Below the pieces are notes generated by a model that worked only from the letters and a program-made list of their open reading frames with translations, made no database searches and had not been told where the DNA came from. DNA of 61,236 nucleotides, the filler included, from Hausera hauseri (taxonomy: Eukaryota): assembly GCA_046269625.1 (NCBI GenBank). It is 11 parts of 11 records of this genome, joined end to end, with 100 filler letters (N's around TTAATTAATTAA, not from the genome) between each part and the next. Parts side by side here need not be neighbours in the genome. Positions count along the whole stretch, not along the records: positions 5,497 to 11,906 come from JBJURY010103543.1; 10 more parts are not named here. One strand, 5' to 3'. Of this stretch, positions 5,497 through 47,860 are shown piece by piece. A program made the translations under genes and the position numbers. Numbering within the stretch: the first letter of the stretch is position 1; each line of letters begins with the position of its first letter.

Positions 5497-6526
5497 CAAC
5501 TGCCTCTAGCCTCAATTAATAAATGTCTTCCTGGTTCAAAATTTAAGAAATTGCTGCTTACACATGAGCGTAAGTCCAAGTATGTTGTTCAATATCGCCT
5601 CTTACAGTTGTACATCGAGTTAGGAGCTGTAGCTGAAAAGGTTCATAGCGCTGTTGAGTTTGACCAGGGTTTTCTTTAAGGATTACATCGATCTAAAGAC
5701 TGCAAAAAGGGCTGCGGCGAAAAATCCTTTCGAGAAAGATTTCTTTAAGCTGAAGAACAACAGTTTGTATGGAAAAACAGTTGAAAACCTTCTGAAAAGG
5801 TCAAACGTAAGACTATGTAATAATGCTAAGGAGCTTATTACTTACGCTAACAAGGCACAGTTTAAATAGAGCATTATAATCGCAGATGATCTGGTTGCCG
5901 TTCTTCTGGATAAAGACATGGTAACATTAGATAGACCCTCATACATTGGTCAGGCCGGACTTGATTTTTCTAAGTTGCGCATGTATGAGTTGCATTATAT
6001 CTAGTTGGAGTCTTATAGGCAAGAGTTTAATTGTCAACCTAATATTATTGCTAGTAATACAGACAGCTCTTTCATCGAATTCCGCGGTGTTGATTTGCGA
6101 TCACAGCTCCTGCCAGCAATGATAACTAATGAACAGTTGGACACTTCAAACTATGATAAAAGTGATCTGCTGTACTCCACTCGCTTCGCTTCTGTCGTAG
6201 GCAAATTTAATGATGAGAGTAAGGGCTGTGTCCAGTATCAGGACGAGATTTTCCTACGGCCGAAATCATATGCATTGAAAACTGAAAGCAAATCAATCCT
6301 TAAATGCAAATGAATCAATTTGAAACAGACTGACTTACAGTTCGACAGCTATTTACAAGCATACAAAACCGGTTGATCGACTATGGTGGACCAGTAGCGA
6401 ATTGGGACAGAAAATTATCAGTTGATGACAATACAAAAAAGGAAGAAAGCACTGGACCCGTTTGACGATAAAAGGCAGTGGATTGACAAAAACAAAAATG
6501 TCGCATATGGATATTATTGTATATGA
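5497..6526 (+). pseudogene. Polinton/Maverick protein-primed DNA polymerase B, C-terminal part (disrupted)
   Basis: KNPFEKDFFKLKNNSLYGKTVEN, NTDS (motif C, degenerate), GKFNDE, LRPKSY, ALDPFDDKR; several stops and frameshifts. Confidence 0.9.
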
Positions 6527-6648
6527 TTGTTGTATATATTTTGTGTAAATAAATATTTCATTCTTTACTGTGTTTGTTTTATTAATAAGGTTTTTTAATC
6601 AAATACGTTTCATTTATACTGTTTTGTGAACATTTATAACATACAAAG

Positions 6649-7250
6649 TGTCAGTAGTTGAAGGTGGGCCCTATCCAACACCAAACTATAACGATTGCAA
6701 ATTGAAGTTTATTTATAATTTAGCAGGTAAGTTCTAACGTTCTCGTTAGAAGTTTTGCACTATTTTAGATGTTTGTACTGCGTGTTGTGCCTTGCGTAAT
6801 TTATAAATTCTCGACTTAGCTAGTTTAATTCAAGTTTAACCTTAGTGTCGTACTAATCCCTCGTAAGGAGCGACGGAAACTATAAGGAAGTTTAATACAG
6901 TTTATTCAACAAAAAAGGAAAATAAATACCGAATAATAACAACTGAATATCGACACAGTAATTAATCAATAAGCAAGTCCGAATACAGTTTCTTTCGCTG
7001 ATTAACAGATTTGATTTTCAGATTTTAATTACATCTGACATGCTATACATCATGCTACAGCTTATATAGTTGCTTGTAAACAACATCGACTGAGAGGGAA
7101 TTATCTTTAAATTCTTTTTAGATTAATTTTGATTTGCTACGATTTTATCTGTTTCTTCGCATGCAATTTTTCCATTAAATTTTTGTGTATTTAGAGTGGA
7201 TTTAATAAACTGATTGATTTTCAACTTAAAATTGGCAGTAATCCAGTTTC
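6649..7250 (-). mobile_element. 3' LTR of cargo-carrying Gypsy-type element (copy A); inner boundary approximate
   Basis: Starts TGT on + (ends ACA on -). Minus-strand TATATAA near 7062-7068 and AATAAA at 6901-6906. Colinear similarity to 28788-29417. Confidence 0.7.
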
Positions 7251-7296
7251 GGTTTCCACTTTCATTTTCAATTTCTAATTTCGATTTCACTTTCGA

Positions 7297-7800
7297 TTAT
7301 CTATTATTTACAATTTGTACATGACGACTCTTAGTCGCTCTTTTTAGAACATTTTTCCTCCCTGAACGGCACTCGGATGTGCCCATTGCGTCAGAAGAGG
7401 TTCCGCGCAATCGGTTCATTCGTCCGCGTAAGTCCGCTTCTGAATCCGATTCGTCTGGTGGCGATTGTAAGTCAAAGTGGTAGGATGTAGTGGGTCTTTG
7501 GGGTAGGATCTCCACTATCTTTATATTCTCTCCATTTGCGTAGTATCTCAGTGTTGTAGCCTCGGCTCTACATACTGGACAGGTTGTTTTCCCATTTTTC
7601 AGGGTCCACGTTTTTAGACAGTACCGGCAATATTTGTGATTGCAATATTTGTTGTCCAATACTACGAATTCTTGATAGAGATCCGCATCGCAAACGGGAC
7701 ATTCTTCTTTCTCAGATCCGTCTATGTCCACAAGGTTTTCATACATTTCTATTCTCTCAAATACTAGTCTTTTTTGTCTCAATATAGGTATCTGTATAAT
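7297..7800 (-). CDS. C3HC4 RING finger domain, C-terminus of accessory ORF3 of LTR element copy A
   Basis: CPVC-x13-CNHKYCRYC-x12-CPVCR followed by an acidic then basic tail. Confidence 0.85.
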   Translation of the reverse strand: MIQIPILRQKRLVFERIEMYENLVDIDGSEKEECPVCDADLYQEFVVLDNKYCNHKYCRYCLKTWTLKNGKTTCPVCRAEATTLRYYANGENIKIVEILPQRPTTSYHFDLQSPPDESDSEADLRGRMNRLRGTSSDAMGTSECRSGRKNVLKRATKSRHVQIVNNR

Positions 7801-9727
7801 CTTTTTTTATTTGAGTTTATAGAACTTTTCTTAGGATCGTCTGATACCGTGACCAATGTCCATTCGACTATTTTTTGTTTATCCAAATCCGGTATTCCAG
7901 TTTTTCGTATTGCCTTTTAGTTGAATTCTAACTTGGGCATCTACAGGAATTGTCAATCTGTTAGTACCATTCTTTGACTAAAATATTGGAGCTAGGTATC
8001 TGCCAATAGTGGTATCTTCCCTGGCACATCTATTTCCACTTACTATCCTTCTCGGAACGGTGGATACATAAGATACAGCTTCTTTGATCTTATCCTAGCT
8101 ATAATATTCGGCTATGAAAAGCATTCATTTGTATTCTTTTACTTGACCGAATTCCGTAACTATAATTGGGGTATTTTCTTCCCAGTTCTTCCGAAGAACG
8201 TAAACTTCCGTCTTTATAGATCTGGGCTTGGTAATTTTCAACTGATTTTCGTTGTTCTCTTTTGTTTCTCGTTGGTTCTATATTTCTTTTTGATTATTCG
8301 CTTGTTCATTCGGGATTAGGCTGTCTGCTGCTGATCTGTTTTCGTCCATTTAGTTTTTACTGGTTTTGCTCTTCTTTCTACTTATATATCCCAGGAAGGA
8401 AGTTTTCGTCTTTTGTCTTCTTGGATTTTCTGAGTTACTTAATTTTACGGTTATTCCTTCTTGAGCCTTATTGGTCGATGACTTCTGTCGGCTGTTCGGG
8501 GCTTCTATTGGATTATTATGGACTGTTACTCGAAATCGGTTATGTTCTTGGGGCTCGACTTGTCTATAGCTCGGGTATTCACTAAACCATTTTCAGAATT
8601 TTTGTATCAGTACCTTTGGGTTGTTGTCGGATATCGCATTCTGCATGGGGTTTTTGGGTTTCCACTCGTGTTCCCGTCGTAATGAGTCATAGATTTTCTT
8701 TATAAATCTTGTCTGTTGACTTGCCGATATAAGTTTAGGGAATTTAAATCGTTCGCCATTCGTGGCTTTTAGCCTCATTTTAAATTGTGATTCGCATGAT
8801 GCTGACGGAAGCAGGCATCCTCTTTTCCTCATCAACGTGTTTTCTACTTGACTCACAACCGTTGGATTTCGACTCAGTTCCCGAATTCCAGCTATATACT
8901 CTTGTCGAATTCCTAGCCGTTCTAACGCTTTGTGCACTCGGAATCCGGCAACAATGTACCCATATAAACAATGGCTTATATCTTCCTGGATTTCTAAGAA
9001 ATCTTTTCCTTTTTCGAGATGTACTTTTGTAATCCCTGTAACGTCGGGAAAGGTATCTTTTACCCTAGCTCGAGGCGCGATTATTTTGTTTATAAGTTCT
9101 TCCCCGTTCGTATTTCTGATAGAGACCTCAATAGGAGTATACCATCCATCATCCTTTTCTCCGTAGTTTACGGCTATTATCCTAGTGTTCCTGCCGTCTA
9201 GAACTAATCTGTAAGACTCTCCATTTTGCTCTATTTCGTCTTCTGATGGCTTTTGTATATATAGTAACGGTGGTATTGGCTTCATCACTTCTGTTCGCCA
9301 GGTCATTTCAATTGTGATTTTCGTCGGAAGTTCAGGGGCTATAGCAACATAGTTTATAATTATTAAATTTCCATTGTTGCCCCTTTTGTGTATTCCGGGA
9401 TTGTCCTACGATCCTGTGTTGAATTTCTTCACCAGCGACATGTATGTACAACTGCTGATGTGTCGGCTCATATGGAATCATATTTCTTAAAAGGCATGCC
9501 CGTGCATCCTCTGGATTCCGCATTGCATATAACAGAACCAGTCGATTTTCCTCTAAACCCCATTTTAACCCAATCGGTATTTTACTTTCCTGATTGAATT
9601 TTAAGTAGGTTTTGTTTTTCAGATTTTCTCAAATTTTTTCTAAGACAGATCATCGTTTTGAAGCAAAATATTTTCTCTGTCTGATGATAGGATAACCTGA
9701 TGTGTAATTGTCAGGTTTTGCTATCAT
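7297..9727 (-). pseudogene. Accessory ORF3 of LTR element copy A: N-domain, inactive DEDDh exonuclease fold, Lys-rich linker, unknown domain, RING (frameshifted)
   Basis: ORF 8593-9306 has IIAVNYGE..EVSIRN..GEELINKII.P...VKD....VTGIT..HL..GKDF.EIQ..I...L.GYIVAG, the REXO4/ISG20 layout. Peptide blocks are colinear with copy B (34702-36731). Confidence 0.75.
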
Positions 9728-11030
9728 AAAGTCCGTCTCTGCGCCCTTTTCCCCGTTTATCTCCCTTTAGATTTTTATCGCGTTTATTACAATTTTTGGA
9801 AACTAGAAAAATCGTCGCCGTTAATATAATAAGAACGAAAATTAACAAACTTAATATAGCTATTGTCGGTAATTTGTTTTCCTCAATAGAATTATTCGTA
9901 GTGAACGCACTTTGGGTAGTAATACCCTTATATTGCATTACTTCAATTTTGTTGTCTAGAGTTCGCACTGTATAAGTTTTAGGATTCTTACCCCTTGCAA
10001 TGATTCTGATTATATAGTTATGTAGCGGTCGTAAGTATAGTCATTCGGTTTCCGGACTATTCTTTCTTAAGACTACGATTTGATTGGTGTGCATGGTGCG
10101 ACATTCGATTTTGACGTCGTAAATTAACGTTTCCTCAACGTAAAATAGGATTTTGTTCCTTTTTGCCAAGACCTTAAACGGTATACTCCCTAGTTCTTTC
10201 TCGAGCAGTTCCTCCGAAGTGACGATCGCAGTAGTTAGAGTTGTACTCGGAACAGTGGACGGTTTCCCCGTAGTGGTTGGAAACGAAAGCTTCCATATTC
10301 CGATTTTGTGACGGTATCCCATTAAGTAAGTGCTTTGTTCGCCGGGATATGTATTGTACAAATTGAGTTGCAATTGATACTTCTGTCCTAGTTGCAATTC
10401 ACAACACACAGTAGGTCGCCGTCGGGCTAGATAACAGTACTCAGGGATAGGAGTCGAAGTAATTAGTGATACAAATCGGACGGGAATTTGTCTGTCTCCT
10501 CGTAGTTCTAACTTGGTTTTAATACGAATACATCAGTTCTTAAAGTCCTTATAAATTCCAATGATGTTGTAGTCTAAGAGTCTTTTAAATGGGTCAGTAT
10601 TTTGAATTATCTCCTCTGTTTTGGCTTGGCTTGTGTCCTTTTGTTGAGGCATTCTTATCAAAAAATCAGTAATGATATAGGCTTGGGCTCCAAGCTGATT
10701 GTAATAAAACATTTGAAACCTGTATCGGTAGGTTTGTCCGAAGTCCAAATCGCAACATTTCCTATGAATTTCATACGGAAAATCGCATGTTCTTATCGTG
10801 GATTTAGTTGCAAATATTATTTAAAATTTCACATGGTTCTGAATATGTCCACTTGCTTCGAACCACGCACATGGTTTGCTCTAATCCATATCGTACACTC
10901 TAATTGATTGCAAGTTTTGGATATCCTTTCGTCTTGCCGCATACTGTAATTTTTCGGTTTGAGTTATCGACTTCACCTTCGGTACATACGAAGCGATTAA
11001 CAATAAGGCGAAAATTATTTGCACGTATGA
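9711..11030 (-). pseudogene. Env-position type I membrane protein with three FN3-like domains (copy A)
   Basis: Signal-like YVQIIFALLLIASYVPKVKS; repeats CCDLDFGQTYRYRF, CCELQLGQKYQLQL, LRPLHNYIIRIIA; Thr-rich linker; TM ILSLLIFVLIILTATIFLV; basic tail. Confidence 0.7.
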
Positions 11031-11802
11031 TATCGGTCTCGCCGTTATGGACGATGTTTTTTTTTCTCTGTCCGTATATTCCGATTTCGCTCTGCTAGAA
11101 CGTAGATTGTCGCGTTTACTTGGTTTTATCTCGGTTTCAACTACTCTCTGAATCGATATGACCTCTTCCTTGCCATTTTTATTTATATAAACTGCGGTCG
11201 GTGTAGTTTTGGTATCTTCATACGGCCCTCTACTGGTTCTGCTAAGTTTGAGAGATGTGACTTTCTTGGTCACTGGATAGTGTACGTAAACTCAATTTCC
11301 TGGTTCTAGGTTGTGTGATTTAGCATTCTTGTCGTATTGCTTCTTAAATTGTTCCTGGTATTGTTTAGATAATTTCTTGGCTATTTCCAACACTTGTGTA
11401 ATCTCAGTTGTAATACCTCGACAAAATTCTGCTCCAATTCCTCCGTTTTTGTGGTCTAGGCAATTAATCCTAAATCTGTAGGCAGTACAGCTTCTCTGCC
11501 GTATATCATAAAAATGGAGTGAATCCTGTCGCAGGATTTGGGGTAGTGTTAATGGCAAACTGTGTACCTTCTAAGAACTCGTTCCAATCTTTCTGGTCTT
11601 TTGCGACTACTGTCTATAAGATTCGTGTAACTGTCGCGTTCATCCGTTCAACCATTCTATTACATAGGGGGTGATAAGCTATGGTAGTTAGTCGTTCAAT
11701 TTCGAAAATTTTGGTAATTTTATCAAACAATTAGCTCGTAAAGTTTCTCCCTCGGTCTGTTAAAATTTGTTCGGGCGGTCCGTATCTGCAAATAATCGTC
11801 CG
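11031..11802 (-). pseudogene. Gypsy-type integrase core and GPY/F region (copy A)
   Basis: ICRYGPPEQILTDRG, AYHP..NRMVERMNATV, FAINTT, GPYE; near-colinear with 32570-33270. Confidence 0.9.
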
Positions 11803-12006
11803 TGTGAGGAGGAATTCAGGCAGCCAATCTAAAGTGAGGAAATTCATAAGAGGAGGAAAATAAGGTTCATTTACTGATTGAATTGAGTGAAATGTTATAT
11901 CAACTTNNNNNNNNNNNNNNNNNNNNNNNNNNNNNNNNNNNNNNNNNNNNTTAATTAATTAANNNNNNNNNNNNNNNNNNNNNNNNNNNNNNNNNNNNNN
12001 NNNNNN

Positions 12007-12290
12007 GATAGATATACAGTAGACTTTGAAAAGAATGACTTTACCGATGCATATTATCGGTCCATAATACTAAACATGGGATGTGTAAATAAAAATATGA
12101 ATAATGGCATGACCATGGATGAATTCAAAGAAAAGTGCCCCTTCATTACGTTTGTTTTGGCACCGGACTTTGATGTTAATCAACCACAAATGCAACAAAC
12201 AGGCTATTTGAAATTGGATTTAAGATTCAACAAGGCATTTGGGAATGTAGCTACATTGTACGTATATGCAGTTTTCGATAGTGAATTATA
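12007..12290 (+). pseudogene. Polinton major capsid protein (double jelly-roll), C-terminal fragment
   Basis: GYLKLDLRFNKAFGNVATLYVYAVFD matches the typical Polinton MCP C-terminal strand pattern; lies next to protease and pPolB. Confidence 0.7.
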
Positions 12291-12354
12291 TTTTATTCAT
12301 GCAGTACATTTCAGATTGAAAAGGTCTTGGGCAGACTCAGAAACTTCTGTGACG

Positions 12355-12640
12355 TATATAATTTGGATAAAGTTCCAGACTATCTACTCAATGGTGGATG
12401 TGATTAATACGTATTCTGCTAATTTACCAGGAGAATACTAGACAGCAATACATGTAACACCAGATCATATTCAAGTGTTTGATTCACTTGCAATGTATTA
12501 CCCATCATTGGTGACGAAATTGAAACGTATGCGGCAATCCGTCACATACAATAACATTATTTATCAACATCCATTGACATTTCTAAGTGGGAATTATTGT
12601 GTGGACTGGCTTAGGCATCAATGTATATAAAATTGTTATA
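12355..12640 (+). pseudogene. Polinton adenain-like cysteine protease (degenerate)
   Basis: INTYSANLPGEY*TAIHV...QVFDSL...YQHPLTFLSGNYC follows the NT...PGxHW..FDS..Q...CG.YC layout; catalytic His and Cys are substituted. Confidence 0.75.
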
Positions 12641-12783
12641 AACATTGTCTTCTTTATTGACTTGGAGGGATTTTTGATATTAATAATCAATACATTATAA
12701 AGGAGCTGTGTATAATGTCAGTGGATAATATGTTTAATCCACTACATTATGTATTTGCGTAAGTGAATTTCTTACTATAATAC

Positions 12784-13170
12784 ATGCAATATATATATTA
12801 TTTTAGACCTACAATGCATTGTTGCACAAACAAAGCACAAGCAACAAATGCCTATTTGACGCCATATCATCAAAAACTAACGTGGGAACAATATAATACC
12901 CAGTTTTGCAAAGATTTCCTCATGCAATCTTTGACACTATGTGTGATATACGTGAGGCTACGTTCTACGTCAAGGATCATGCTGATAGGCGAAAGAAGAT
13001 ATTTAACATTACATCTCCAGAATTACGAATATGTGCATACGATTGTGGGAAATTGGTATCTATACCAAAGAACATTACATGTATTTATCGTGAACACGGT
13101 TTACATTGTGCTTATAAAAAGTGTTCAGCGTCATGTCAAAGTTATGTTGTTGCGAAATGTGTTATGAAAT
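12784..13170 (+). pseudogene. Polinton uncharacterised DEDD-like protein (homolog of 27868-28320 and 59382-59860)
   Basis: TNAYLTPYHQKLTW...CDIREATFYVK...PKNITCIYREHGLHCAYKKC aligns with TNGFLIRHRNVIYW...TMFYVN...PDNILGPYRKHEPHCAYRKC. Confidence 0.7.
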
Positions 13171-13279
13171 TAGTTGGCCTTATCCTATATCCCACATTAC
13201 TTGATCAAGACAACACCACATTTTTATAAGATTTATTAATACAAAATACAACACGTCATAACAAAGATATTTACATTAA

Positions 13280-16200
13280 TGCAACATGCCCGTGAAATAG
13301 TGTGCTTATTCCATCACCCAGGATCTGCATTTGTCACCTATTCAATCCAGGCTTTCGATGGATCACTTTGAACCCCTTTACCCGCTTCTTTACTTGACCA
13401 CATACATGAATCGCATACATTTTGGACATAAGAGCCATAAATCTCGACATGATTGTCCAATTCACCTCGTCCTTAAATTTCCCAAGGATCTTTTCGTTAG
13501 TAATTGAATAATTGGGATGTACTTCGGATAGTCAGAAGCATAGTACCCCGTCTTGTCTTCCTGATCAAATAATGTGGAATATAGGACAATGCCAACTAAT
13601 TTCATAACATACAGTGGACATTGTTGAGGACTTTGCTAAGTTCGTTCAGCATATGTATATGCTTGACATTCCGGCAGAGCATCCCAACTATTCAGTTACC
13701 AAAAAAATGTCCTATGTAAGGATCTGATAGATGAAACTACCAGTATCCATATACATCAGCTGTATGGACTTGAATGTGGGGACCATGATGTCATAGTGGA
13801 ATTTGTACATCAGGGTCCTTGACAGATCCAGTATTGTCATACCCACATATATGGGCTTGCTGAATTGCAAGGATGTTTTCATCATATTGATGCTGACCAC
13901 GTTCTCCGCATATATGATGCTGCTGTGGAAATTGGGCTTGGCAATGAGCATCTTTTCCCGCTTCCACTCAGAGACCAGTTCGATGTTGATCCTGTTGCGG
14001 ATAATCTCCATGGTCTTGCCAAAAACGCTGTTGTTGTAAAGCTTGAACTGATCCTTCTCAAAGTCGTTCTTGGCACTTGCCCGCAGTTTCGTATTGAGGT
14101 CTATATATTGTTTCGGCCAGTTAGACTGGTTGAACTGCAGGGCTCAATGAATCTTAGTAATGCGGAGTCAATTTCTGACTATCTGCTGGAGATTTATGCA
14201 GTGGACTACATACCTCTCCCTACTAACCAGATGACAGAGCAGCTTTCTATGCTTTCCATGGGGCGGAGGCTTGAACTTATGGAGGAAAGGCAGATGTTGA
14301 TGACTTGTACGGATAGAAGCAGGATATTCCATATCCACCTCAAGTATGTATCCGGTATCTCCAGTGGGATCCCGAATTCGGTCATATCTTGTTGGCCTCG
14401 CTATAGTAGTAAATGGACTAACATATTCCACCTCTAATGCCTCGCTCGATCATGAAGATCATGTCGTAATCCTTTATGATCTGCAGCCTAATCCCGGTGT
14501 ATCTTATCATAGCTGCCCAACTCATCCCTGGAGCCGTAAAGAAATGAACCAGATCCAATGCATGGCTCTTCATAGTAACATCTCTCAAACTCTCAAAGAC
14601 ATTCGTCAGCAGCAGAACGTCAGTCTTGAGGTATATGTCGCTATATTCTCCTCATGTTCGGCGTTGAAATGCATCCCAAACGTTCTGAGCATGCTGGTAG
14701 TCAGGACAACTAATATCGCAATCAGAGAGGATATTGCAAACGTCCTTGGCCGGCAATGAGGTCTAATCTAGTGTTTCCCATGAAATTATGTAGTCATAGA
14801 GAAACACGCCTTTCCTTTTGACAAGGTCAAATGTAGTAGGGAAGAAACGCTTCGTCTTCTTGAGTTCTTCTACAGGGAGGTTCTTCACTAAACTATCAAG
14901 TGAAAAAGACATGAAACGGAAACTGTAAATGAAGCGAAGCCCGATTTTCCCCACATGCTTGGTAAATGTTATGTACTTCTCCTCATTATTAGGGATCACA
15001 TCAATGTTTCGTTCAATGCTGCACAGTTCCCGAACAATGAAATGGGAATGATAGCCACTGAGATTATGGAACACTACAGGCACTTGTGTACATGTTTTGA
15101 AACGTAGATAGCAGTTGTTGCATACCGCACCTCGATATGTGCCTGTAAAATGGAAATGATCCCAGACTTTATAATTCTCCTTAGTGAATGATTTGGAACG
15201 CAACTAACATGCTGTTGCCTTGCGCCAGTTTTCTTCTTGCTGCTTCGACATGCTCATTGTATCCTTATGCTGCTGCTGCATATCTCCAATCCTATGAACC
15301 ATATCTTCAAGTCGCTTCATGAAATGAGCTGCTGCGCCTGGACCCCTGGATAGGTATGGTTCACTGTCTAGTGCTTTGGCATACATGCAATATGAGAGCT
15401 CATGATATTCGTATGCCGTTGTGCTGCTACGTTGGGGGATTAGGACTGCAACTCTGAACTGGACGCAGAATAGCCTCAAATTCGCATATAGATAATTATC
15501 GGGACGTTGATCTTCTTCTCGAACTCCTTGAATTCAATGGAGTCCTACTTGGGAAATTCCGGCTTGATACAATAATTATTGTTGCAGTACATCTTGTGTA
15601 CTGCAAGCTTAAATATTGGTACATCGCCGTTCAAATGAGACAAGCATCGTTTACATATTTCTATTTGTACATGATGTTTCGTAATTTGTGATCTTACTAG
15701 CCGCTCAAAGTCTTTGATCCAAACATACTGATTCTTCTCCATCGTCTCGTAGGAGCAGATCCCTATGATCTTTCAATTCAGCATCGCATATCTGCAGGGG
15801 ATAGAATTTGTCCTCCTCATCCAATCCCAAGATATTTATGAACATGTTGTTCACTTTTCCAAATTTTTTGACTTCATATATGGATGTAGGGAACTTGATA
15901 CATTGGAAGTCATAGTTGTGCTGAACATCCTTATATAGCCAAACTCGTGAAGCATGATTATGATCCGTTACGAGTTTTGATAAAATGGCATACATGAAAC
16001 ACATGTTGTCGCTATTATGGACATTGACATGCTTTTTTATTGGCGATCCAATCAGAAAGCTGAATATATGAACTGCCCCGCATGAGAGAGTACTTGTGAA
16101 CATACACAAGCAATCTCTTTATGGTTGCAAGAGTCCATCCGCTCTTCTTATCCTGACACTCCCGGCTTCACGGATCAGCTTTTCGTGCGCATCTTGCAGC

Positions 16201-16880
16201 CATTCAGCTATATTGGTGTTTTCCAATATGGACCTATTTTTAGTCTTGAAGGCCATTTTGGATTCTTCGCCATCAACATTGATGTATGTGGCCTCCAGTT
16301 TCATATTCACCTTAAGGGCTTTGATCTCAGTCATGTTGTCCTGATGAATTCCCACTGTCTCGTCCTTTGTGTATAAGAGAGAGTCTTGGAGGGTTGTTTG
16401 ACTAGTTACATCAATAAAATATATATGGCATTTTCTCTTTAATGCTGCCGCATCAACTGGCCACAGTCTTTGGCTTTTTGACCGACCATCTTCTGCTCCT
16501 GCTGCTATAGGTTTTAGTCTTGCATCAGGCCTTGCTGCCAAAGCAGGCTGTACAACTTGCTGTGCTGCCGAAGCAGGCTATATAACCGGTTGTGCTACCA
16601 AAGCAAGCAGCTACTCATTAAAGATGACTTTCTTTGACTTTGACTTGAAGTCTGTCAAATGGGCAATATGATCTTCGTAAATCTGCGTGTATTCTCCATC
16701 ACATACAGCCTCACATCCTGGGCAAGTATAATAGAAGATCCTATTGAATTTGTATCCATAATGGCTCCTCATAGTATTATGACAATTCTGAGGGTTGTGT
16801 ATTGCACATGTGCAATACACGTATGAACTGCATCTTTGATTTTGCTTAGGCATGGAAGTCTTTATTGGCATATTGGTACT
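13280..16880 (-). pseudogene. Polinton protein-primed DNA polymerase B with N-terminal Cys/His region and endonuclease VII-like domain (disrupted)
   Basis: [112 protein letters not shown]; many stops and frameshifts. Confidence 0.95.
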
Positions 16881-17369
16881 GAATATTTGTTTTTTCGACT
16901 TGGTGAAGGAAATCAAGTGCTGTTTATGGACATTGTAANNNNNNNNNNNNNNNNNNNNNNNNNNNNNNNNNNNNNNNNNNNNTTAATTAATTAANNNNNN
17001 NNNNNNNNNNNNNNNNNNNNNNNNNNNNNNNNNNNNNNTGAGGAGGAGGGGGCACAACCAACAGAACAGAGGGCAAGAGACAGAGAAAACAAAAAACATG
17101 ACTCAGGAGACTGGGGGGAGGGTACAGACAGGACAGTGCAAGTACAAGAAAAACATCAAGACCAATGAACCCGGAAAAGGCAGAGCAAGACTTCAGGCAG
17201 ACGGCCCACGGCCCGCTAAGCTGGAACCATGGAAGACTCGTGGACTGTGAAAGACCTAGGAACTAGGGAGACTGGAACAGAAGACTTGTAAGGAACTGCG
17301 GGTGAGCCAGACAATATACTCAAAGGTGAAGATGGACCAGGAGACTGAAGAAAGTGGATGCAGCCCAGG

Positions 17370-17754: not shown

Positions 17755-20700
17755 TGCCGCATTCACACTAGCACCTACTCAGCCCGACTGAGCCTAATTC
17801 AGCTCGACTCGGCCTGTGTTCACATTAGTACTTCTTCGTGGAACCCGGGCCAAATCAGGACTTTTTTAGGACCCAGAAGAGTGAGGTTCTGCCGGGCCGA
17901 GCCGGGCTGTAAATGTGACGTCAGCGCACTGTTCATCACTGATTGGTCTGGGGGTGGAGTCATCAAGCCTGAGAAAGTTTTCCAGTCCGCCATTGTTGCT
18001 ACCGCCCGCTAACTCAACCGTAGCTAATTCGTACGTCTCTTTTTATAAACAGTTATGGCAAAAGCTTGGTCTAACAGCGAAGTGCAGGCGTTTTTATGTT
18101 TTTTAGCCGACGAGAAGGTGCAGCATGAGCTAGATGGAAGCACTCGTAATGAGAAAGTTTTTAACGAGTTGTCGGAGCTAATGGCTACTTGTTACGAGAG
18201 AACACCAAAACAATGCCGGGAGAAGCTTGAAAAATTAAAAAGCGATGACCGCGCAGTGAAAGATCATAATGGCAGGAGCGGAGACGATATTGGAAGTGGT
18301 TTGAAGAGATGGACGCTATTTACGGGAGGCGGCCTGCGAACAACGCAAGTGTGCAACAAGTGTGCAGCTTGTGTGGAAGCAGCTACAGAAAATGGTGAGC
18401 ATTTTAAAACTTTAAGCATAATTACATTTATTCATGCAATCGGTTCAGAACATATTTTGAACAGAAAAAGGAGGCAGACGCCATTGCCCACGACGCTATC
18501 CTCATTAGCATCGTCGCTAACTGCTATTCTCCTTGATCCAGAATGTCCATCTGCAGGTGAAGATGTGTCTGCTGAACACATTTTGGACCCTCCAAACATC
18601 CCTGCCTCTGCCCCATCTCCATCAGCGGAACACACACCGTCTGCCAGTTCTCCATCATGTGGATCAACACCAAGTCCTACCACCACACACATCAGCACAA
18701 CACGACGCTCTGTATTAGGTAAGATTCATCAAAAATAATGTTTACATCACTTTATGTGTGCCTATAGGAAACCAATTTTGTTAATGTGTTTTTATGTGAA
18801 TAAGTAATATGTGGGAAACCGCTTCCTTCTGCTAATTCTCACTTAATTCGGCTTGTTTAGCTAAACCGATGTTTGTGCAGCAATAAACATGTACAGTTGA
18901 AAATTCTCAGGAAATGCCATATCTCTAGTTCATTTTGTTTTATAATTTTCTTGTTATTAATGCAACTACTGTTTAGTTATATGTTTGAAGTTGCTCGTGA
19001 AGATTTAAATGAGCAAAAAGAGAGTTTTTCTACACACCTGCTTAAAAACAGCACACTCAAGCAGGTTGAATTATGTGAAGAACCACTAACTTCTCAATAT
19101 CACAACATTGAACTTGAAAACAAAGAAAGACATTTATTAATAACCAGTAACTGTGTTTGTGTAAAGCATTTATTTTAAAAGAAAATATGTACTGTGCAAA
19201 ACCTCCTGAAATTGTTTTCTTTTTTTTAGGCAAACAAAGAAACGTTCCTGAAGTCGTTCAGGTTATTTCACAAATGAATGCACATGAGGAACCGGGCTCA
19301 GCGCAAAGATCACTTCCGTCTTCTTTCAGCTGATGCACACGAGGCGAGGGTCGAGGGAGCGACCTTACGAAGGGAGGAGACGGCTATGAGAGAGAAGGAG
19401 CTTCTGTTACAGGCGGAGACAACTGCGTTGCTTCGAGAAGATTCAGCCCTTAGGAGGGAGGAGGTCGCTCAAAATGCTGCCTTCAATCAAGCGTTCCTTG
19501 GGGTTCTCGGTGACATGACCCGTGCCATTGCACAAAGACATGTGTAACAAAAAGCTATAGTTAATTGCATAGACACATATGAATGTATAAGCAGTACGTA
19601 GATTCACTTTTGTTTGTTCTACATTTGTTATCTGTACTGAGTTGCTATTTTTTCATTGTTTTTCAATAAAAAAAGTAATGAACAGAGCTTGTAGCATTTT
19701 CAATGTTGACACCTTACAGTGTGTGTTAAACTCATAGTCTGCTGAGAATTTATCAAATGTTGTTTTGTAGAAATGACCCCTTAAGTTATCAGAACAGTAT
19801 CACATATGTTTACCTGTTATTAAACGTGGCCTCTTTAGGTTCAAGGATGAGGTCGCCAGTCCAGATTTCTTGATCATCACTACATTTACTTTAATCTTGT
19901 TAAATTATGAATGCTTGTATTTTCAAGATACATAGCCAGCAGAATAAAAAGTTGTGGGTTTAACATTTATACATAATTAAACATAAAATATAGTATACAG
20001 AGAGTAACCTGTATAAAAAAAGGTATTTTGAATGAAGATGTATATGGTATCGGTATATATATGTAAATATATACTATGAAAGTATACAGGGTTGTTTATT
20101 ATACATGTATATACATATACGTTATTCAAATAGTACATATATGAAGATATGTATATAGTATATAACGGTACATATCTAAATATATGTATACATACATGTT
20201 ACACATGTTTGTTAATCTGTATAAATATGTGGTTATACTCTGCAGAGTATAACCACATATTTATACAGATTAACACTCAATATAATATATGGTAATGTGT
20301 TAACTTTTTAACCAAAGTGAAAAGAAGGTAAAACATTTGTGCTAAAGTTCTACATAGTTGTCAAGTTCCTGCTGTAAAGATAATGTTTGCTAAAGTACAG
20401 CTGATTGAAAACGTTTGTGCGGACAGCACATTGGGATTTGTTTTGCAGTTTCATCATGAACCAAAAAGTGCATATCTGTAAATAACAATAGTCAAAAAAT
20501 TGTTAAAACATATTTATTGTCCACTTATTTACTGAACTGGTACATGTTGCTTTATTGGATTCCAACGCACTCCGGACTTTATCCTGAGTTTTTCGCCTCG
20601 CTGACCGCAACTTGCAGCGAGGAGCCAGCAGCCTACCGTGTCTGTTCTCTTTGACGTCTGACAAAAAGCCAAAAACTAAGCAGAACATTCAACAAAACAA

Positions 20701-21588: not shown

Positions 21589-24100
21589 ATGTCGTCCGGT
21601 GCGACAGGAATTTGATGGTAAGCTTTAGCTAAATCAATTGTCGAATAAACGGAAGTAGTATTAAGTCTATGTAATATGTCTTTAATTAATGGTAGTAGAT
21701 ATGCGTACATTATGGTTAAAGTATTAAGCTGACGGTAATCACCTCATGGTCAGAAGGATCCATCTTTTTTTGAACAACGTGGAGGGGCGAAGACCATGGT
21801 GATTTAGATCTCCGGACGATACCTGATTGTTCGAGTTCCATAAATTCAGCTTCTACTGCCTGTCTGCGTCGCAGTGACAATGGACGGACCTTTTGTCTAA
21901 TTGACCTTTGATGCCTTGTAATTATGTGGTGGTAAATGCTGTTTACTGGGGTGAAATTCCTATCTTTCTGAAGTATACGAGGACAAGAAGTATGGACGAA
22001 GTGTTGCAAACTTGCGGGTAGTTGCGGGAATGTTGTAATTGACGATGAACCGAGGTTGTTAGCAGTACTTGGTATATGGTGATTAGTTGTTGGTGAGGAA
22101 TCAAGTAGAGTTTTGAGTAGTATTGTCGGGTCCGGAACCGTGTTTTAGTATGTGTTATTGTTTAATGATTTTATGGAAAATACCAGATTGTCGGTGTCGA
22201 CATTGAGCCGTGATTGGCTGTCGACATTGTCCTTTGGAAGCTTACGATGTAAAACGTGATAGTTATTGGAATTAGAACGAGGTACTGACTGCTTTGAAAT
22301 GGATTGCTTACTTACTGTTGACTGTGATGTCATTGGGATGCTGTCTATACCTGTGCTACGGTCTACAGGTGTATTTGCTTTTAGGCAGCGTCGGTTACAA
22401 TCGACTAGCAACTTATCGTGCGAAAGGAAATCTGAGCCAAGTATTGCCGTCTGGACTTTAGCGACTGTAAACGTCCAATGAAATAAAGAGGAAAAGTTTG
22501 GTAGAGTAAAAGATAATTTACAAGTTCCAGCAATACAAAGAGATTGACCAGAGGTAGTGTATAAAGGTTTTATTTTAGGTGAAGAATGCTGAATCGGAAA
22601 GGAAAGTGGGAGTAGTGAGATCGCTGCGCCAGTATCGATGAGAAAACCTATGGATTGAATGTTAGGATTAGCGACAGCAGCTTTTATTGTGAAGACTGCA
22701 AATAAAGTGTGTCGGCAGTAGGAATTAGATAAACTGCCTTTGCCAGGATCTTCCGAAAATACTGGCGGCGAAATTAGTTTTTTTGGATTGGTGAGTTAGA
22801 ACGGTTACTGTTAGAGACGTTGGGACGTCTATCAGTGGGGTAGTTTTTGTTATTTTTATAGTTACTGCCAAAAATACAATTCCGAGCATTAAATCCGAAT
22901 TTTGCATGATAGATGCAAATTATGTTATTAGAGTGTAGATTCGATGAAAAATATCTACACCCTAAACAGCATTTATCTGCTTTGTTGTTAAATTTGTTGT
23001 GGTAATAACATATGAATGATCGCGATGGTGACGGTATCCGATTTCTGGAAGGAGAACGTGTTCGATGAGACGCGGAAGCATTCCGTCTGTATAAATAAAG
23101 GTCATTCAGCTTATCATTGATGGTGTTGATTGTGTGTTGGAATGCCACATTTTCGGCGCGTAATTGGTTCAATTGGTGCTAGATGGATGTATATCGTTAA
23201 TTGTCATCGTTCATAATAACGGCTGATATGATAGGTTGTGATTGGATTTGTCAGATTTCGTGTGCTTTATCTGCCAATTCAGCCAGTTTATCCAAGGCTG
23301 TGGAATCTTCAACAACGGTAAGTAAAGCCCTCATTTGAATAGGTTAAACATTAAGGAAATATCGTCGAAGTAGATCCGGATTGTGTTCATTGGTGACACC
23401 TAAAGTACGTAAGTGAACTAACGAGGTACGTAGGGAATCACTAGATTTTTGTATCTCCATTGCATTTTCATTAAGGAACGCTGTATTATTGAATCAATTG
23501 ATGGTTCTATCAGTTTTAACGCATCATTGAACAATTGCGCATAAGGGTCAGGGTGTTGAAAGATATTGAGTAAGTTATGGATTAAGGCCTTTATGGAGTT
23601 TGGTAGAAGGTAGAGTAGATTATGGGCTTTGGATAACGAGTCTCTAATACCGTTGGTTTGTAACCAGAGTTGATGGAAGTGGAGCCAAGTTTTGCCAGAA
23701 TTTTCATTGTCTATAAAGTATTCAGAGCAATGTAGGGGTGTAGTTGTAGGATTTTTGTGAAGAGTTAGTATCGGTTGAAGTAGGTGGATGGTTTAATTTG
23801 GGATAATAAAGAATGGATTTGGGTTTTGTGTTCACCTTATCTGTGATGTCACTGGTTGGTGAAGAAATCATACCGCCTCGAATTCTAGGGTGGATGTAAG
23901 TACAGAGGTAGCATTGTGAGGACGTAATGTGTGAGATGTCAGTTAAAATGAATCCATTGTGAGTCAAAAAGTCATTGAAGGCGGTGGCTTTATGAATGAA
24001 GTCATATAACTGTAATGTGTCGATACGTTGTGACATGTGCGATATGTATTAATTTATTATTTACAAAAAGGTGGATGGGAAATGACGTTGGTAAACAAAA
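21589..24100 (-). mobile_element. CsRN1/Kabuki-like Gypsy LTR retrotransposon fragment (gag, protease, start of RT), decayed
   Basis: Gag with two CHCC knuckles (CYYHNKFNNKADKCCLGC; CIYHAKFGFNARNCIFG); FLIDTGAAISLLP protease; GIVRRSKSPWSSPLHVV, DYRQLN, IDLAKAYHQIP. Confidence 0.9.
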
Positions 24101-24149
24101 AGCTGGGTAGTGTGGTATTTCCACACATTTTATCGGGTGGATTCTGAGT

Positions 24150-24927
24150 AAGTGATAACTTTGTGTCTTTGAATGGAATAACCGTCGATTTCTTTTTAAT
24201 AAAGAAGTATTCACCACTGTACAGTGACTCACGTAAAACATTCCAGGATTCCGTACCTAGATTGTAGATCAGTGGGAAAAATTCGCCTATGAAATTAAAT
24301 ACTTCAATCTCAATAGACTCTTTAATACTGTGTTTAAACTTTATTCTGGGACTGATGGGAACGGCATTCTGATAGTCAATATCAACAGCACATAATATTC
24401 GTAATAGTGTTTCAGTAGCATATAGGTGTGTCAATGCCTGCAAATGGTATCTGTTTCCAGAATAGGTTGGATGGAATCTTGGGAAAAAGGCTAAGAAAAA
24501 GTGCAGAGAATTTTGGAGAATTACATAGAGTAAGTGTTCCGCCGCCTATGAATAAAAGCCCAATGGACATAGAATACGTCATATAGACACCGTAATGAAG
24601 CGTATTTTTAGCTCGAATAATTGATCGAAGGCTTCGAGACATACGTAACCGCGTTAAATTACTAGTGCCGGATGCAATCTTGCACGCCGATAAATAGAGG
24701 ATGGATAAAGTCCAATCATAAAAATATTGCCTAATGTTCTCCAATAATTCACAATCGTTTTTTATGGATAATAATATTTCTCAATGTGCGAAAGAATAGT
24801 AGCAAGACCATCCTGCTTATCCGTACCAGCATATCGCATGACCATTACAAAACTTGACCCCACGAGCAACGAAAGGTAACTCATTGGCCATCAGAATATA
24901 CTTTTCAACAAAGTCCGTCGGTTGGAC
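24150..24927 (-). pseudogene. ANAPC1: Intronless fragment of anaphase-promoting complex subunit 1 (C-terminal PC-repeat region)
   Basis: MRYAGT, ASGTSNLTRLRMSRSLR, YGVYMTYSMSIGLLFIGGG, LFLSLFPKIP, QALTHLYA match APC1 motifs (RFAGS; MAGSG.L..L; HMA.GLLFLGGG; LQALRHLY); frameshifted. Confidence 0.85.
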
Positions 24928-27804: not shown

Positions 27805-27867
27805 ATTATACTAATAATAATTTCTTTAGTGTTATAAACAAAAATCGATTTTGTACGTAAACTAATA

Positions 27868-31873: not shown

Positions 31874-31975
31874 NNNNNNNNNNNNNNNNNNNNNNNNNNN
31901 NNNNNNNNNNNNNNNNNTTAATTAATTAANNNNNNNNNNNNNNNNNNNNNNNNNNNNNNNNNNNNNNNNNNNNCC

Positions 31976-33273
31976 TTGACACTAAATAAAACAATCAAAA
32001 TTTCTGCCGAACAAGCCAAAGATAAAGTTATCCAACAAATAGTCAAATTTTCCGAGCAAGATGAGATACCAAAAGGACGTCAACTAAAGAAACACTTACA
32101 GAGACACGGACATAAATATTATTTATCAAATCCGGATAATATTTTATATTATGAACGCAAAGGATGGAAACTGGTTGTTATTCCAAAAGGATTACGCACA
32201 GAAGTACTAATGGCCAAACATGATTCACATCTAGCCGGACATATGTCATGGGAGAAAACATTAGAGTGTATACTGAATAAGTATTACTGGCCAAGCGTTT
32301 ATATCGATGTGAAAAATTGGGTGGACGCTTGTGAATGCTGCGCAACAAAACAAAGAAAAGTGAAAAACTATATAGCAGAATTAAAACCTATCGACGTACC
32401 AGACAGATCTATGCAAGCTACGTCTATGAATATAGTAGGATCTTTACCTACAACTCATAAAAATAACAAATATATTTTGACATGCGTAGATCGTTTAACA
32501 CACTTTGTGGAATTAATCTCATTAATCGATCAAAAAGCAGAAACATTAGCAGACGCAGTAGTAAGGAAAATCATCTGCAGATATGGACCGCCCGATCAAA
32601 TACTAACCGATAGAGGAAGAAGTTTTACGAGTGAGTTATTTGACAAAATTTCTAAAATCTTTGACATCGAACGATTAACTACTACCGCATATCACCCTTA
32701 GTGCAATGGGATGGTCGAGCGTATGAACGCAACAGTTATACGAGTCTTATCGACCGTAGTAGCGAAGGATGAAAAAGACTGGGATGAATTTTTAGAAGGA
32801 ACACAATTCGCTATCAATACTACTCCACATCCCGCCACAGGATTTACACCATTTTTTATGATGTATGGACGCGAAGCGATTTTACCTACGGACTTAGGGA
32901 TGACTCCGTATCACGCAAATCTAGAAGATTTAGAACCAAATTTTGCGGAAGTTTAGCAAATAAGATTACAAAAATATTGGGATATGGCGAAAACGCTCAC
33001 GCTTGAGTATCAAGAACAGTTTAAAAAACAATATTATAGAAAGCCAAACCTCACGATTTATAAAAATGAAACTGGGTCTATGTACACTACCCAGGTGCAA
33101 AGAAAGGCACCTCATTAAAATTTACTCGTACTGGACTAGGGCCTTACGAAGTTATTCGAACCACACCAACTACTGCCTACATTAATAAAAATGGTAAAGA
33201 AGAGGTATTATCCATACAGAGAATTGTTAAAACAGAAATAAAACCAGAAAAACGTTACAATCTGCGATCTAGC
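31976..33273 (+). pseudogene. Gypsy-type integrase (HHCC, DDE, GPY/F) of cargo LTR element copy B
   Basis: HDSHLAGH...CECC zinc finger, ILTDRG, MVERMN, GFTPFFMMYGRE, GPYEV; two stops. Confidence 0.93.
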
Positions 33274-34718
33274 TTGAATCAAGATAAAAAGAAAACGAAA
33301 ACGTCCTCTATAATTAGCGGACCAATATCTTACGTACAGATAATATTAGCATTATCGCTAATTGCCTCCTATATCCCGAGAACACAAGCTAAATGGTGGT
33401 ACGACAGTTACGGAGTTCGAAAAAGTGGAGCAAGATCGGAGGTTATTAAAACGGAAAAGAAATCAACAGTCAAAGGAAATCAAAGACAAGAAAATATAAG
33501 ATTATTACAAGCAATAATGATCCACTATTACTCGCCTAACTCTACATGCGTTGGATTGAAAACACGGAAACAACACCGAAATTCTGGAAGGATCCAAATT
33601 GTCTTAGATGATGTAATAACAAAAGAAGCAAAGAATTGTGATTTTGAGCCCGGAGAACGTACACAATGTTGCAATACGGATTTCGTACACACTTACAACT
33701 TTACCTCTCGACTATACGTACCGAAATGATCTAAAATCTTGAAATAAAACCACAATTCCAATTGGTCATCCCTGCATGGAACAGGCATCGTGGAATAAAA
33801 CCCAACAAAATGCTCAAGTCCGTCGACCCAGTAAATGGATGCTGGAAAAAAATATTGCCAGTATAACAGAAAACGCAAAGGACAGTTGTGTTCAAATAAA
33901 AACAAAAGGACGATTAATTAACGGTCGAGTAATCACGGTCCAATTCCTGAAAGAGAACATACCAGCTGACAACCAACAGTACTGCCAAATCGATGTCGAG
34001 CAACCGAAAATATGTTGCAAGTTACCCCAGAAATATAAATAAGATTCGGTTAAACTTATATGAAGTTAGATCAAACCAGTCGGGTATTTATCTAGGAATC
34101 TACCAATTTAGAAGTCCAATCGAGCAAAATTCACTTCGGACGACAACGAATACGGAAACAAAATCTACTACTCCTGCACTTATCAAAAGCACTCCAACGG
34201 ATAGATCATCTCAGAATGATCTAAAAATAATCCCTGTAAAATATTGGGCACAACAACGCGAAATAACGTTCATTGTGGAGGAAACACTTAACTACGACGT
34301 AGAAATAAGCTGCCGAACATTACACGATAATCGGAAGGTAACACTGCCAAAAGGCAGCTACCGAATCAAATGTATCGGATTGAAACTCAAAACAGATTAT
34401 ATAATACAAATGGGTGCAGAGAACAAACAAGGTTCAGTGTTAACAATACGGACCTTAAAAGAGATTGTCGTAACGAAACCACTGACTGATGAGAAAGCAG
34501 AGGATGGGACTACGACTACCGCCAAAATGGAAAATTTAACTAAATGGACAGCGTTGTCATTAACATCGATTACTGGAACGTCAGTATTTGCTTTCATAAT
34601 TTTAATTGCGTTTTGTCGATTGGTTACCAAAAACTGTTGTACCAAGCGTCATAAAATCACCGAGAGGGAGTTAAGGGTGGTGGTACCGCAGGATGGAATC
34701 AATGATGGAATAACCTGA
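33274..34718 (+). pseudogene. Env-position type I membrane protein with three FN3-like domains (copy B), in frame with the integrase C-terminus
   Basis: YVQIILALSLIASYIPRTQA signal-like segment; two C..C..CC domains; GLKLKTDYIIQMGAENKQG FN3 signature; TM SVFAFIILIAF; colinear with copy A. Confidence 0.72.
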
Positions 34719-36731
34719 CAACTACAGATTGGGTTATTCCACCATCAAACAAATAATTGGTTCAGATTTAGAACAATACTTTGTTTTAGGACTGACCCTT
34801 ATTTTTTATTTTCTTTCAGAATGGTAAGTATGATCAGCCGAATTAGAGTCGACGAATTCCTACAAGGATACGCAACGGTCTTCATTCCCAAACCGAAAGC
34901 CATATACAGAAGGATAAATGACCCATTACAAACAGAAACATACGTCGAATACCGGAAAGTAAACGAAATACCAAATGACTTGAAGGATACCACCGAATAG
35001 AACCGCACAATTTTCCTATACGCGATGCGCAAAAACAATCAAGCTAAGTCATATAGCCTTAAGGAAATGATCCAGAATAGGATCGCCCAAGTGGAAGATA
35101 TATTTATCCATCTAGCTAATGACGAAGTGTACTATAGAATAGAAAATCAACGATGGAACTGTAATAAATGGCGCCAATACCGATTTAGTACATTCAAAAT
35201 AAGCGGACAAGGCCTAAAAAGTATCGATTATGACCTAGAATTTACATAGAGAAAACTGCAACTTAGGCTTGCCAGTTCTAGAATTCAAACAAATCCCAAC
35301 CTAAACGGAGAAAGACGAACATTACCAGTCATATAGGCTAGTACAGGATGTCGTAATACAAGAATTATGGCGATAAATTGTGGCAGAGGAGACGATGCGT
35401 ATGGGATACCTATCAAAGTATCTATTAGAGAAAGAGATGAAACTGAGCTTTACTCTACCATTATAAACCCCAGGAAACATGTTCAAGAATGATATGCGGA
35501 AGTAACTGGTTTACGAAAGGAACAACTTATAAGCGGAAAAGACATTCAATAGGTCCATTCTGAGTTAGACCATTGCCTCTACGGGTGTATGATAACGGGA
35601 TACAACGTAAAACGGGAAACCGAGCTATTAGGGATATCCGATACAAATATTGCCGGACTTAGGGAAATAGCTACTCACCCAATGGTTCAGAAACAAATGG
35701 AAAAGACCGTACAAGGAAGAAATAGGCCGACTACACCAGAAGCCTTCTTCAACCTGATGATCGAATCAATGAATAATAATTCGGGCAGAATTCCCAGACT
35801 TCTGACGACCAGCCAACGCTCCAAAAATTTGCAGGAAATTTATAAGACATTAAAATGGGAACATGAATGGGCCCTACAAGCCCTACATACAATTTACGTA
35901 GTTCCTTGAAATCTGAACAGATAGACCTCAAATATAGAAAAAACATCAAGCCCTATTTCCCGGTCAGGACTGTCCAGCCAACAGACAAACATAGTCTCAG
36001 GATTACCGTACCAGAACCAAGGGGAGAACAAGGAAGTAAAACGAAATTACGGAGGATCAAAGAAAAAGATAAGACATTAGAGGGAACATCAAAGTCTCCG
36101 GAAGAACAAAGAGACGAACCAAGGCCAGAAATAATAATTAAAAAGATGAAGTTGGAAGAGAAACCCCAGCCCAGGAAGACTTTATCCATTTATAATTATC
36201 TATTCAAGAAGAAAAGGGAAGATAAAGAACAAAAAGTAGAAAACCAACAAAACAGGCCAAGTATCGCACAGAAGATAGAACCATTGAAAAAGGGAATTAA
36301 GAGTCCCATAATAATGGAAATTAATGCCCTAATAGGAAAAAGAAAAAAAGGGGACGTGCATTGCAGAACAGCCCAAGATTTTCCTAGAATGCTGGTAACT
36401 ACTGAATATTATAGTAAAAAGACGATAAAAGAAGCTATGTTTTTCATCAAAATTGCCCCAGCAAGAGAAGTCTTTGAAGATACCTATGTATTGGAAAATA
36501 CTAAACTGGAAACTTATCTTACATCAATTTTTGGTTCAAAGAGGACCAAAAAAATAGTAGTTCCTGTGGATAAACAAATTCGAATATTGTTAAAGAAACT
36601 ATCAAAAATATAAAATAGAAGGAAAGATTCCTGACCTAGACAAGGATCTTATCAAGGATTGGACTTTGATACAAGTGAACTGTGACTCACGTAAAAGTTC
36701 AATTAACCCTAAACAAAAGGTAATTCACGGA
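34702..36731 (+). pseudogene. Accessory ORF3 of LTR element copy B (inactive DEDDh fold, Lys-rich linker, conserved unknown domain); cut by the contig end just before the RING
   Basis: RIMAINCG..IKVSIR..LYSTIINP..VTGL..GKD..HCLYG..IAGLREI..EHEW; EYYS..IKEA..YL..IF..PVD.Q.RI.LK..IPDLDK..WTL..KSSIN shared with copy A. Confidence 0.75.
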
Positions 36732-47692: not shown

Positions 47693-47842
47693 AATATTTG
47701 GTTGATGCATTTCATGATGCAACGAAAAATGCACATGGGTATATTTTCATTGACTTTACACAACAATGTGCAGATGATGAACGGGTTAAAACAGATATAT
47801 TTAATCCTAAAGGAATAACTGTGTATAAACAAATCAAATAGT
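47693..47842 (+). pseudogene. Polinton packaging ATPase C-terminus (partial)
   Basis: YLVDAFHDATKNAHGYIFIDFTQQCADDERVKTDIF is the typical Polinton ATPase C-terminal block. Confidence 0.75.
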
Positions 47843-47860
47843 TGCTTACGAAAAACAATA

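Follow-up and report, generated by a model that had tools for sequence, protein, structure and literature searches.

The window analysed here, a stretch of 61,236 nucleotides from the genome assembly of Hausera hauseri, is made up of 11 contigs joined by N spacers, two of which carry incomplete copies of a retrotransposon: copy A on the contig at 5497-11906, read on the minus strand, and copy B on the contig at 31974-36731, read on the plus strand (Table 1). The assignment to Ty3/gypsy is based on the presence of a gypsy-type integrase at the end of pol, and both contigs start inside this integrase. It is followed in both copies by a gene for a membrane protein, ORF2, and then by a long ORF3. 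The two integrases share 82 of 99 residues (83% amino acid identity over 99 codons). Outside the integrase the copies are only about 30-50% alike, a level of divergence at which they are best regarded as distinct subfamilies. A run of purines followed by TG, the sole such run between 7420 and the end of the copy A contig, coincides with a fall in the cover by sibling sequences from 7371 to 151 across 7356/7357, and is likely to represent the polypurine tract and the start of the 3' LTR, which would make ORF3 the last gene of the element. No second LTR was found on the copy A contig. Downstream of copy A, the segment 6206-6523 matches 56116-56345 and 60893-60951, at the two ends of the contig 56114-61236, one of them in inverted orientation.

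Table 1. Positions in the window of the features of retrotransposon copies A and B
Feature	Position	Strand	Remarks
Copy A, integrase core and C-terminal part	11094..11906	-	Broken; runs off contig end
Copy A, ORF2	9713..11093	-	In frame with integrase tail; hydrophobic leader, ectodomain, one transmembrane helix near 9803-9857; 4 internal stops
Copy A, ORF3 N-terminal beta-rich domain	9338..9667	-	Start damaged; frameshift near 9335; 39% identity to P0003 75-180; strands in model
Copy A, ISG20/REX4-type DEDDh pseudonuclease	8659..9195	-	42% identity to P0003 241-418
Copy A, ExoI remnant A-V-N-Y-G	9160..9174	-	Ala 9172-9174 and Asn 9166-9168 most likely at D and E positions
Copy A, ExoII acid position	8926..8928	-	Ala
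Copy A, ExoIII positions	8713..8730	-	His position Ile 8728-8730, Asp position Gln 8713-8715; anchored on conserved last-helix Tyr
Copy A, premature stop	8593..8595	-	Private to A; first of 6 in-frame stops between 8595 and 7980
Copy A, basic, poorly conserved linker	8041..8592	-	24% identity to P0003; model pLDDT <50
Copy A, domain X, conserved	7782..8139	-	Stops and frameshifts; 50-57% identity to P0003 in A and B
Copy A, C3HC4 RING, end of ORF3	7567..7701	-	8/8 ligands; Pfam zf-RING_2 3e-8; 65% identity to P0003 RING
Copy A, 12-base purine run, then TG	7352..7363 (with TG 7363-7350)	-	Likely polypurine tract and 3' LTR start
Copy B, integrase	31974..33273	+	Pfam Integrase_H2C2 4e-17, rve 1.5e-12
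Copy B, ORF2 membrane protein	33274..34718	+	Frameshifted
Copy B, ORF3 start and N-domain	34821..35351	+	ATG after pyrimidine-rich AG (splice-acceptor-like); broken; N-domain 41% identity to P0003
Copy B, DEDDh pseudonuclease	35352..35870	+	Stops at 35490, 35550; ExoI Ala 35370, Asn 35376; ExoII position Glu 35616; 41% identity to P0003
Copy B, linker and domain X	35873..36731	+	Contig stops short of RING position; linker 28% identity to P0003

ORF2 occupies the position of env. Its predicted product is a single-pass protein in which Cys-containing, beta-rich units are repeated. Scans of pieces of the ectodomain against Pfam gave no match and no Env family, the furin motif R-x-[KR]-R is absent from copy A ORF2, and copy B ORF2 gave an Atlas lead to fn3/Ig at 0.90. 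The protein is not recognisable as a fusogenic Env and could instead be of an adhesion type.

Several other mobile sequences are present in the window. A gypsy-like gag-protease at 21589-25761 on the minus strand lies beside intron-free, broken pieces that resemble host genes (24060-24545 and 24931-25446). One of these pieces is a fragment that matches RNase III (Pfam, 1e-3) and is presumably Drosha-like, and the other we take to resemble APC1. A related element is found at 51865-56013. At 12007-16938 and 47693-51764 there are two DNA polymerase B genes of the Polinton type, both decayed and with an Endonuclease VII-like domain, which are about 78% alike. A Polinton-like contig pair at 27838-28317 (plus strand) and about 59370-59830 has an ORF without Pfam match whose FIDIEAF motif is like the ExoI of another DEDD protein. 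An ORF at 18049-18735 (plus strand) is Myb/SANT-like (Pfam, 3e-11), presumably of the kind typical of Harbinger transposons. Contigs 1, 4 and 8 look unlike the rest and may derive from a second organism within the assembly.

The composition of ORF3 became clear by alignment with P0003, an unbroken ORF of 870 amino acids that is an intact natural member of the same lineage. In copy A the alignment runs from 9649 down to 7411, in copy B it starts at 34848 and continues until the contig stops, and it gives a layout of N-domain, pseudonuclease, linker, domain X and RING. A first-pass annotation of this DNA had placed a DEDDh domain at 8593..9306; the domain does lie inside this interval, which is itself a fragment of a longer ORF3 ending in a RING. 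A stand-alone gene at 8593-9306 was rejected, as the alignment with P0003 extends beyond both ends. The RING is the best-conserved part of ORF3 (65% between copy A and P0003), and the ligand pattern C-x2-C...C-x-H-x2-C-x2-C...C-x2-C is found both in copy A (7701-7567) and in P0003 (residues 747-791). The pseudonuclease is conserved about as well as the N-domain and far better than the linker (42/41% against 24/28% identity to P0003 in copies A/B). The N-domain is beta-rich (pLDDT about 60 in the model). Weak matches to cupins and plant-virus replicases were obtained at E of about 1e-3, without ranges, and in a wide structure comparison the nuclease domain took up all the matches. Compared with an E. 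coli-type AlkB profile and with 77 of the 80 relatives fetched, it gave no profile match; AlkB domains are reported for orchid gypsy elements (PMC9289625).

The middle domain of ORF3 was shown to have a DnaQ-like fold of the ISG20/REX4 DEDDh group, by a profile of the dead members alone and by the ranking of known structures. The match to DEDDh proposed in the first-pass annotation was thus recovered by a profile containing only members that lack the catalytic residues, and structure superposition agrees with it. The closest structures to the model are those of the ISG20/REX4/SDN1/PAN2 group, a ranking that is partly circular, since the alignment behind the model contained REX4 rows. An origin from Exu, EXD1 or Maelstrom was rejected on structure ranks. 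Single sequences were much less informative: the copy A fragment alone matched none of the Pfam families, its single-sequence fold had a pLDDT of 41, and word-seeded protein searches gave nothing for copy A, only P0003 itself for P0003 55-440 and three matches for profile A3. A titin-like match, P0005, was spurious and was dropped. Scans of viral contigs with P0003 and with a catalytically intact relative, P0010, found nothing.

By sequence, the catalytic set is lost throughout the dead lineage, with a common replacement only at ExoI. This motif reads AVNYG in copy A, AINCG in copy B, AINTG in P0003 and AVNLA in P0004, so that Ala and Asn are invariant in all four and Gly is not. The ExoII position is Ala, Glu and Met in copy A, copy B and P0003, respectively (P0004 ends before it), and at ExoIII the same three proteins have Ile, Leu and Leu at the His position and Gln, Arg and Cys at the Asp position. 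The earlier view that both copies share the same losses therefore holds for ExoI, and fails at ExoII and ExoIII, where the replacements differ between them (Ala against Glu; Ile/Gln against Leu/Arg). The reported absence of the ExoII Asp and the ExoIII His and Asp was borne out in copies A and B and in P0003, Glu being present at ExoII in copy B, and a family consensus without D-E-D-D is found, in that all four divergent members lack the ExoI acids.

It had also been proposed that the ExoI losses are D>N and E>G. Both acids are indeed gone, while the mapping is probably off by two, the losses most likely being D>A and E>N. When the register was tested against host REX4, the Asn was favoured on the Asp position (4.95 against -8.9), in agreement with the earlier reading; against element-borne exonucleases, the Asn was favoured on the Glu position without a gap (4.75 against -0.65), as it was by hhalign and by HMMER in comparison with SDN1. 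The superposition starts with model residue 243 on residue 6 of ISG20, which reads E6-V-V-A-M-D11-C-E13-M14, and an ungapped strand therefore pairs D11 with Ala248 and E13 with Asn250. For Pol III epsilon, ExoX, TREX1, ERI1 and Pan2, the starts of the ranges agree with this offset if their catalytic Asp residues are, as we assume, 12, 6, 18, 134 and 910, respectively; RNase T gives the other register.

Conceivably, the domain has kept nuclease activity through a rearrangement of its active site. Copy B keeps a Glu at ExoII, as do the active relatives, an acid is found three residues past the ExoI Asn in three of the four dead members, and Maelstrom reportedly cuts RNA without a DEDD set. However, none of the five catalytic positions has a conserved acid or His across copy A, copy B and P0003, and a search of the dead members for a conserved Cys/His cluster found none, which makes this explanation very unlikely.

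Both copies of ORF3 in the window are broken, copy A by frameshifts and six in-frame stops and copy B by two stops inside the domain, and this would be in keeping with a loss of the catalytic residues after insertion, as dead copies decayed at random. Against this, the same ExoI residues are present in an unbroken natural ORF and in the fourth member, and none of the listed sibling variants touches them. The sibling data come from one public sequencing run, which may be the source sample and is not independent, and 413 contigs of this run cover 8895-9200 at a likeness of at least 80%. There are 76 variants with a share of at least 10%, and the analysis was made on 40 of them, all with a share of at least 0.32. 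No variant among these 40 of 76 falls in the ExoI codons, at bin depths of about 6,000-11,000, or in the ExoII codon. Silent changes make up 31 of the 40, where 22% would be expected if all changes are considered and 33% if only transitions are (p 8e-9; crude pN/pS 0.08-0.14), and 30 of the 40 affect the third position of a codon. Letters found in copy A alone, of which 16 are listed for this frame, served as a control; they are distributed 9/4/3 over codon positions 1/2/3, three rows being common to both sets. The stop at 8593..8595 is also private to copy A, about 99% of the sibling depth differing there. Identity between copies A and B by codon position is 0.57/0.65/0.28 over 131 codons, and the four members A, B, P0003 and P0004 are 37-50% identical. 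The silent excess and the bias to third positions, set against the control, indicate at the sequence level that purifying selection acted on the dead domain as the family spread, the decay of copy A coming later. The suggestion of an ancestral inactivation, as opposed to random decay, is upheld by ExoI replacements common to four of four divergent members, including the intact 870-residue ORF. Decay after insertion is thus highly improbable, and we are confident that the domain is both catalytically dead and selected.

Relatives of the domain in other elements help to place its origin. P0010, P0020 and P0021 keep D-A-E at ExoI, Glu at ExoII and H...D at ExoIII, and the first two of these motifs are retained in P0006. 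The substitutions that make P0009 dead are other than those of the four-member clade, and no RING or other Pfam family was found in it. Hhalign links the dead clade to the element exonucleases across the N-domain and nuclease (probability 96.8); for the N-domain alone, comparison of dead and active families gave P 0.045, and the case for a common N-domain is made by a few motifs and by position. In a tree of 21 rows, weakened by several long branches, the four dead members group at 100/99 and are joined with P0010, P0020, P0021, P0006 and P0009 at 98/96 against host REX4. An AU test of the four dead members and P0009 as one clade gave p 0.31, which does not distinguish a separate from a single loss in P0009. 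The tree also included P0011, used there only, a protein of 804 amino acids with four tandem REX4-like domains, only one of which has D-C-E at ExoI and none the full catalytic set; one of its repeats reads AINYG, and this close resemblance to the window copies seems to be convergent.

The four loci of the P0010 type (L001-L004) are related copies and not independent, with the exonuclease last in a cassette in which RING-H2, IAP-type RING and TRAF-like ORFs are separate genes alongside it. In L001 the cassette is followed by non-coding DNA, a PBS-like motif, presumably of the tRNA-Lys type, and a gag with Retrotrans_gag and zf-CCHC. A cassette has at most eight ORFs (for example L004:1-6727 and L002:54-4652), comprising two RING-H2 ORFs, an IAP-type RING, a TRAF-like RING-zinc-MATH ORF, coiled-coil ORFs and the catalytically intact DEDDh exonuclease. 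A T-rich AG precedes all 16 ORF starts examined in these loci, which suggests that many ubiquitin-pathway genes could be expressed from spliced subgenomic transcripts. The presence of the P0010 type in an LTR-element cassette and of the dead clade in gypsy shows that LTR elements carry a DEDDh exonuclease in apparently active and dead forms.

It is possible to propose how the dead form might act. An ancestor of the element would have captured an active REX4-like exonuclease, and a lineage that lost the catalytic residues would have retained the fold as a binding surface. Fusion to a RING could then have given an adaptor-ligase by which a bound target is tagged with ubiquitin, the target being an RNA-protein complex of the host, from RNA decay or silencing, to which the element RNA would otherwise be exposed. 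That the dead fold is a binding module of some kind seems rather likely, and the RNA-binding or decoy module of the first-pass annotation remains a plausible form of it. We favour, with a probability of about 0.45, a role for the pseudonuclease as the targeting module of an ORF3 RING ubiquitin ligase, because a selected fold without chemistry most simply binds, and shares its protein with the best-conserved, intact RING. That the target belongs to RNA silencing is possible and on the unlikely side, and it is somewhat more doubtful still that the pseudonuclease docks on host Argonaute or RNA-decay complexes that are then destroyed, which would make this gypsy-encoded E3 a silencing suppressor. 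Against a targeting module, the RING fusion is seen in two of the four dead members, copy A and P0003 (copy B and P0004 end before the RING position). P0009 is dead without a RING, and a dead fold can therefore persist without one. The RINGs of the active elements are also separate genes, so that fusion may represent consolidation of the cassette. The charge of the domain is mixed, not consistently basic (pI of 7.1-9.7 for the three full dead domains), and the Arg with which ISG20 and SDN1 grip the terminal 3' ribose (PMC9157404 and PMC6123492) has given way to Phe or Tyr in the dead members; the active relatives have Val at this position.

P0009 also fits the possibility that the pseudonuclease binds, shields or chaperones the element's own RNA, for 3' end protection, localisation or packaging, much as Exuperantia acts on mRNA, with the RING serving separately. 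In favour of such a role, the ancestor was presumably an RNA-processing enzyme of the element. A basic linker follows the domain (41 K+R against 26 D+E in 201 residues), the Arg of a P-R motif is invariant across dead and active retroelement members, and Exu and PXL are described as binding nucleic acid (PMC13659232). We consider this role possible and on the unlikely side.

The closeness of the fold to the ISG20/REX4/SDN1/PAN2 group, and the report that SDN1 binds the AGO PAZ domain without RNA (PMC6123492), would also suit a decoy, that is, an inactive mimic that occupies the partners of a host nuclease, for example Argonaute or decay complexes, without involvement of ubiquitin. However, descent from an element-borne family, with long branches from host REX4, makes it unlikely that a partner surface was kept. 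Should the host be a parasitic flatworm, it would lack Piwi, Mut-7/Nibbler, Zuc and HEN1 (PMC8191739), which removes piRNA trimming as a target; the piRNA version is therefore weakened, leaving siRNA and decay pathways. Such a decoy is accordingly unlikely. A last possibility is that the domain is a structural remnant, folded only in order to pack against the N-domain or to space the other domains. The invariant residues of the dead members are mostly core Gly, Pro and hydrophobics, and nothing in the pseudonuclease pointed positively to a binding site. Surface-type Arg, Asn, Glu, Asp and His are nevertheless invariant as well, and across deep divergence the domain is as well conserved as the N-domain, so that a mere remnant is decidedly unlikely.

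Little is understood of how the LTR retrotransposons of animals counter RNA surveillance by the host, and few of their accessory genes have been assigned a function. A lineage-wide, selected pseudonuclease within a pseudonuclease-RING accessory protein is real, and its relatives form a natural series of intact exonuclease (P0010 type), dead form without RING (P0009) and dead form with RING (P0003 and the window copies), in the last-gene slot where the context is known. The distinction between enzyme, RNA reader and ligase adaptor is therefore testable with natural proteins. If the targeting module is correct, living relatives would preserve the steps by which an active nuclease with RING genes next to it became a pseudonuclease fused to a RING.

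In the openly accessible literature, no exonuclease of LTR elements was found to be described that is of the DEDDh/REX4 type, dead or fused to a RING, and in a survey of env-carrying gypsy elements a term search did not find 'exonuclease', 'RING' or 'DEDD' (PMC13524379). The nearest parallels described are Juno, Vesta and the Terminons of bdelloid rotifers, which have an intact DEDDy-exonuclease ORF3 whose catalytic set is reported to be DEED and not DEDD (Rodriguez et al. 2017, PMC5408684; cited in PMC6338049). In Juno and Vesta, as here, a gypsy-type LTR element carries the gene for a DnaQ-like 3'-5' exonuclease on the 3' side of pol, and their DEED is matched by the Glu at ExoII of the active relatives here. 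Unlike them, the present domain belongs to the DEDDh ISG20/REX4 group and not to DEDDy/RNase D (mut-7), is dead lineage-wide and forms one protein with an N-domain and a RING. Dada DNA transposons also carry a DnaQ-like exonuclease, of the DEDDy type and inserted in the transposase (PMC3706591), and differ, as far as described there, in being DNA transposons with an intact DEDD. Burro/GYPSM1, giant gypsy elements of planarians, have ubiquitination-related cargo (RING, MATH/TRAF and BIR; PMC6431247) and resemble the L001-L004 cassette in this; the Burro cargo is mostly in one huge polyprotein, and the accessible text names no exonuclease.

Among host proteins, REXO4, ISG20 and PAN2 are placed in one cluster (PMC3985635), and SDN1, a DEDDh enzyme of the REX4 group, is reported to bind Argonaute directly (PMC6123492). 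As these enzymes are described, the ORF3 domain differs from ISG20, ISG20L2, REXO4 and SDN1 in having neither D-E-D-H-D nor the ribose Arg, in being element-borne and in an extra helix segment before the last helix. EXD1 and Maelstrom are cited as pseudo-exonucleases of DEDD fold (PMC5408684), and the PXL of PML and Exu as DEDD folds without an active site (PMC13659232). The ORF3 domain is likewise, as with the PXL of PML-1 and Exuperantia, a DEDD fold without an active site. Unlike these it has a separate, REX4-like and not TREX/Exu-like origin and is encoded by a mobile element; a SAM-like subdomain is not evident in it, and it represents a further independent case of the passage from DEDD enzyme to pseudo-enzyme. 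PML is itself a TRIM protein that combines a RING with a dead DEDDh domain.
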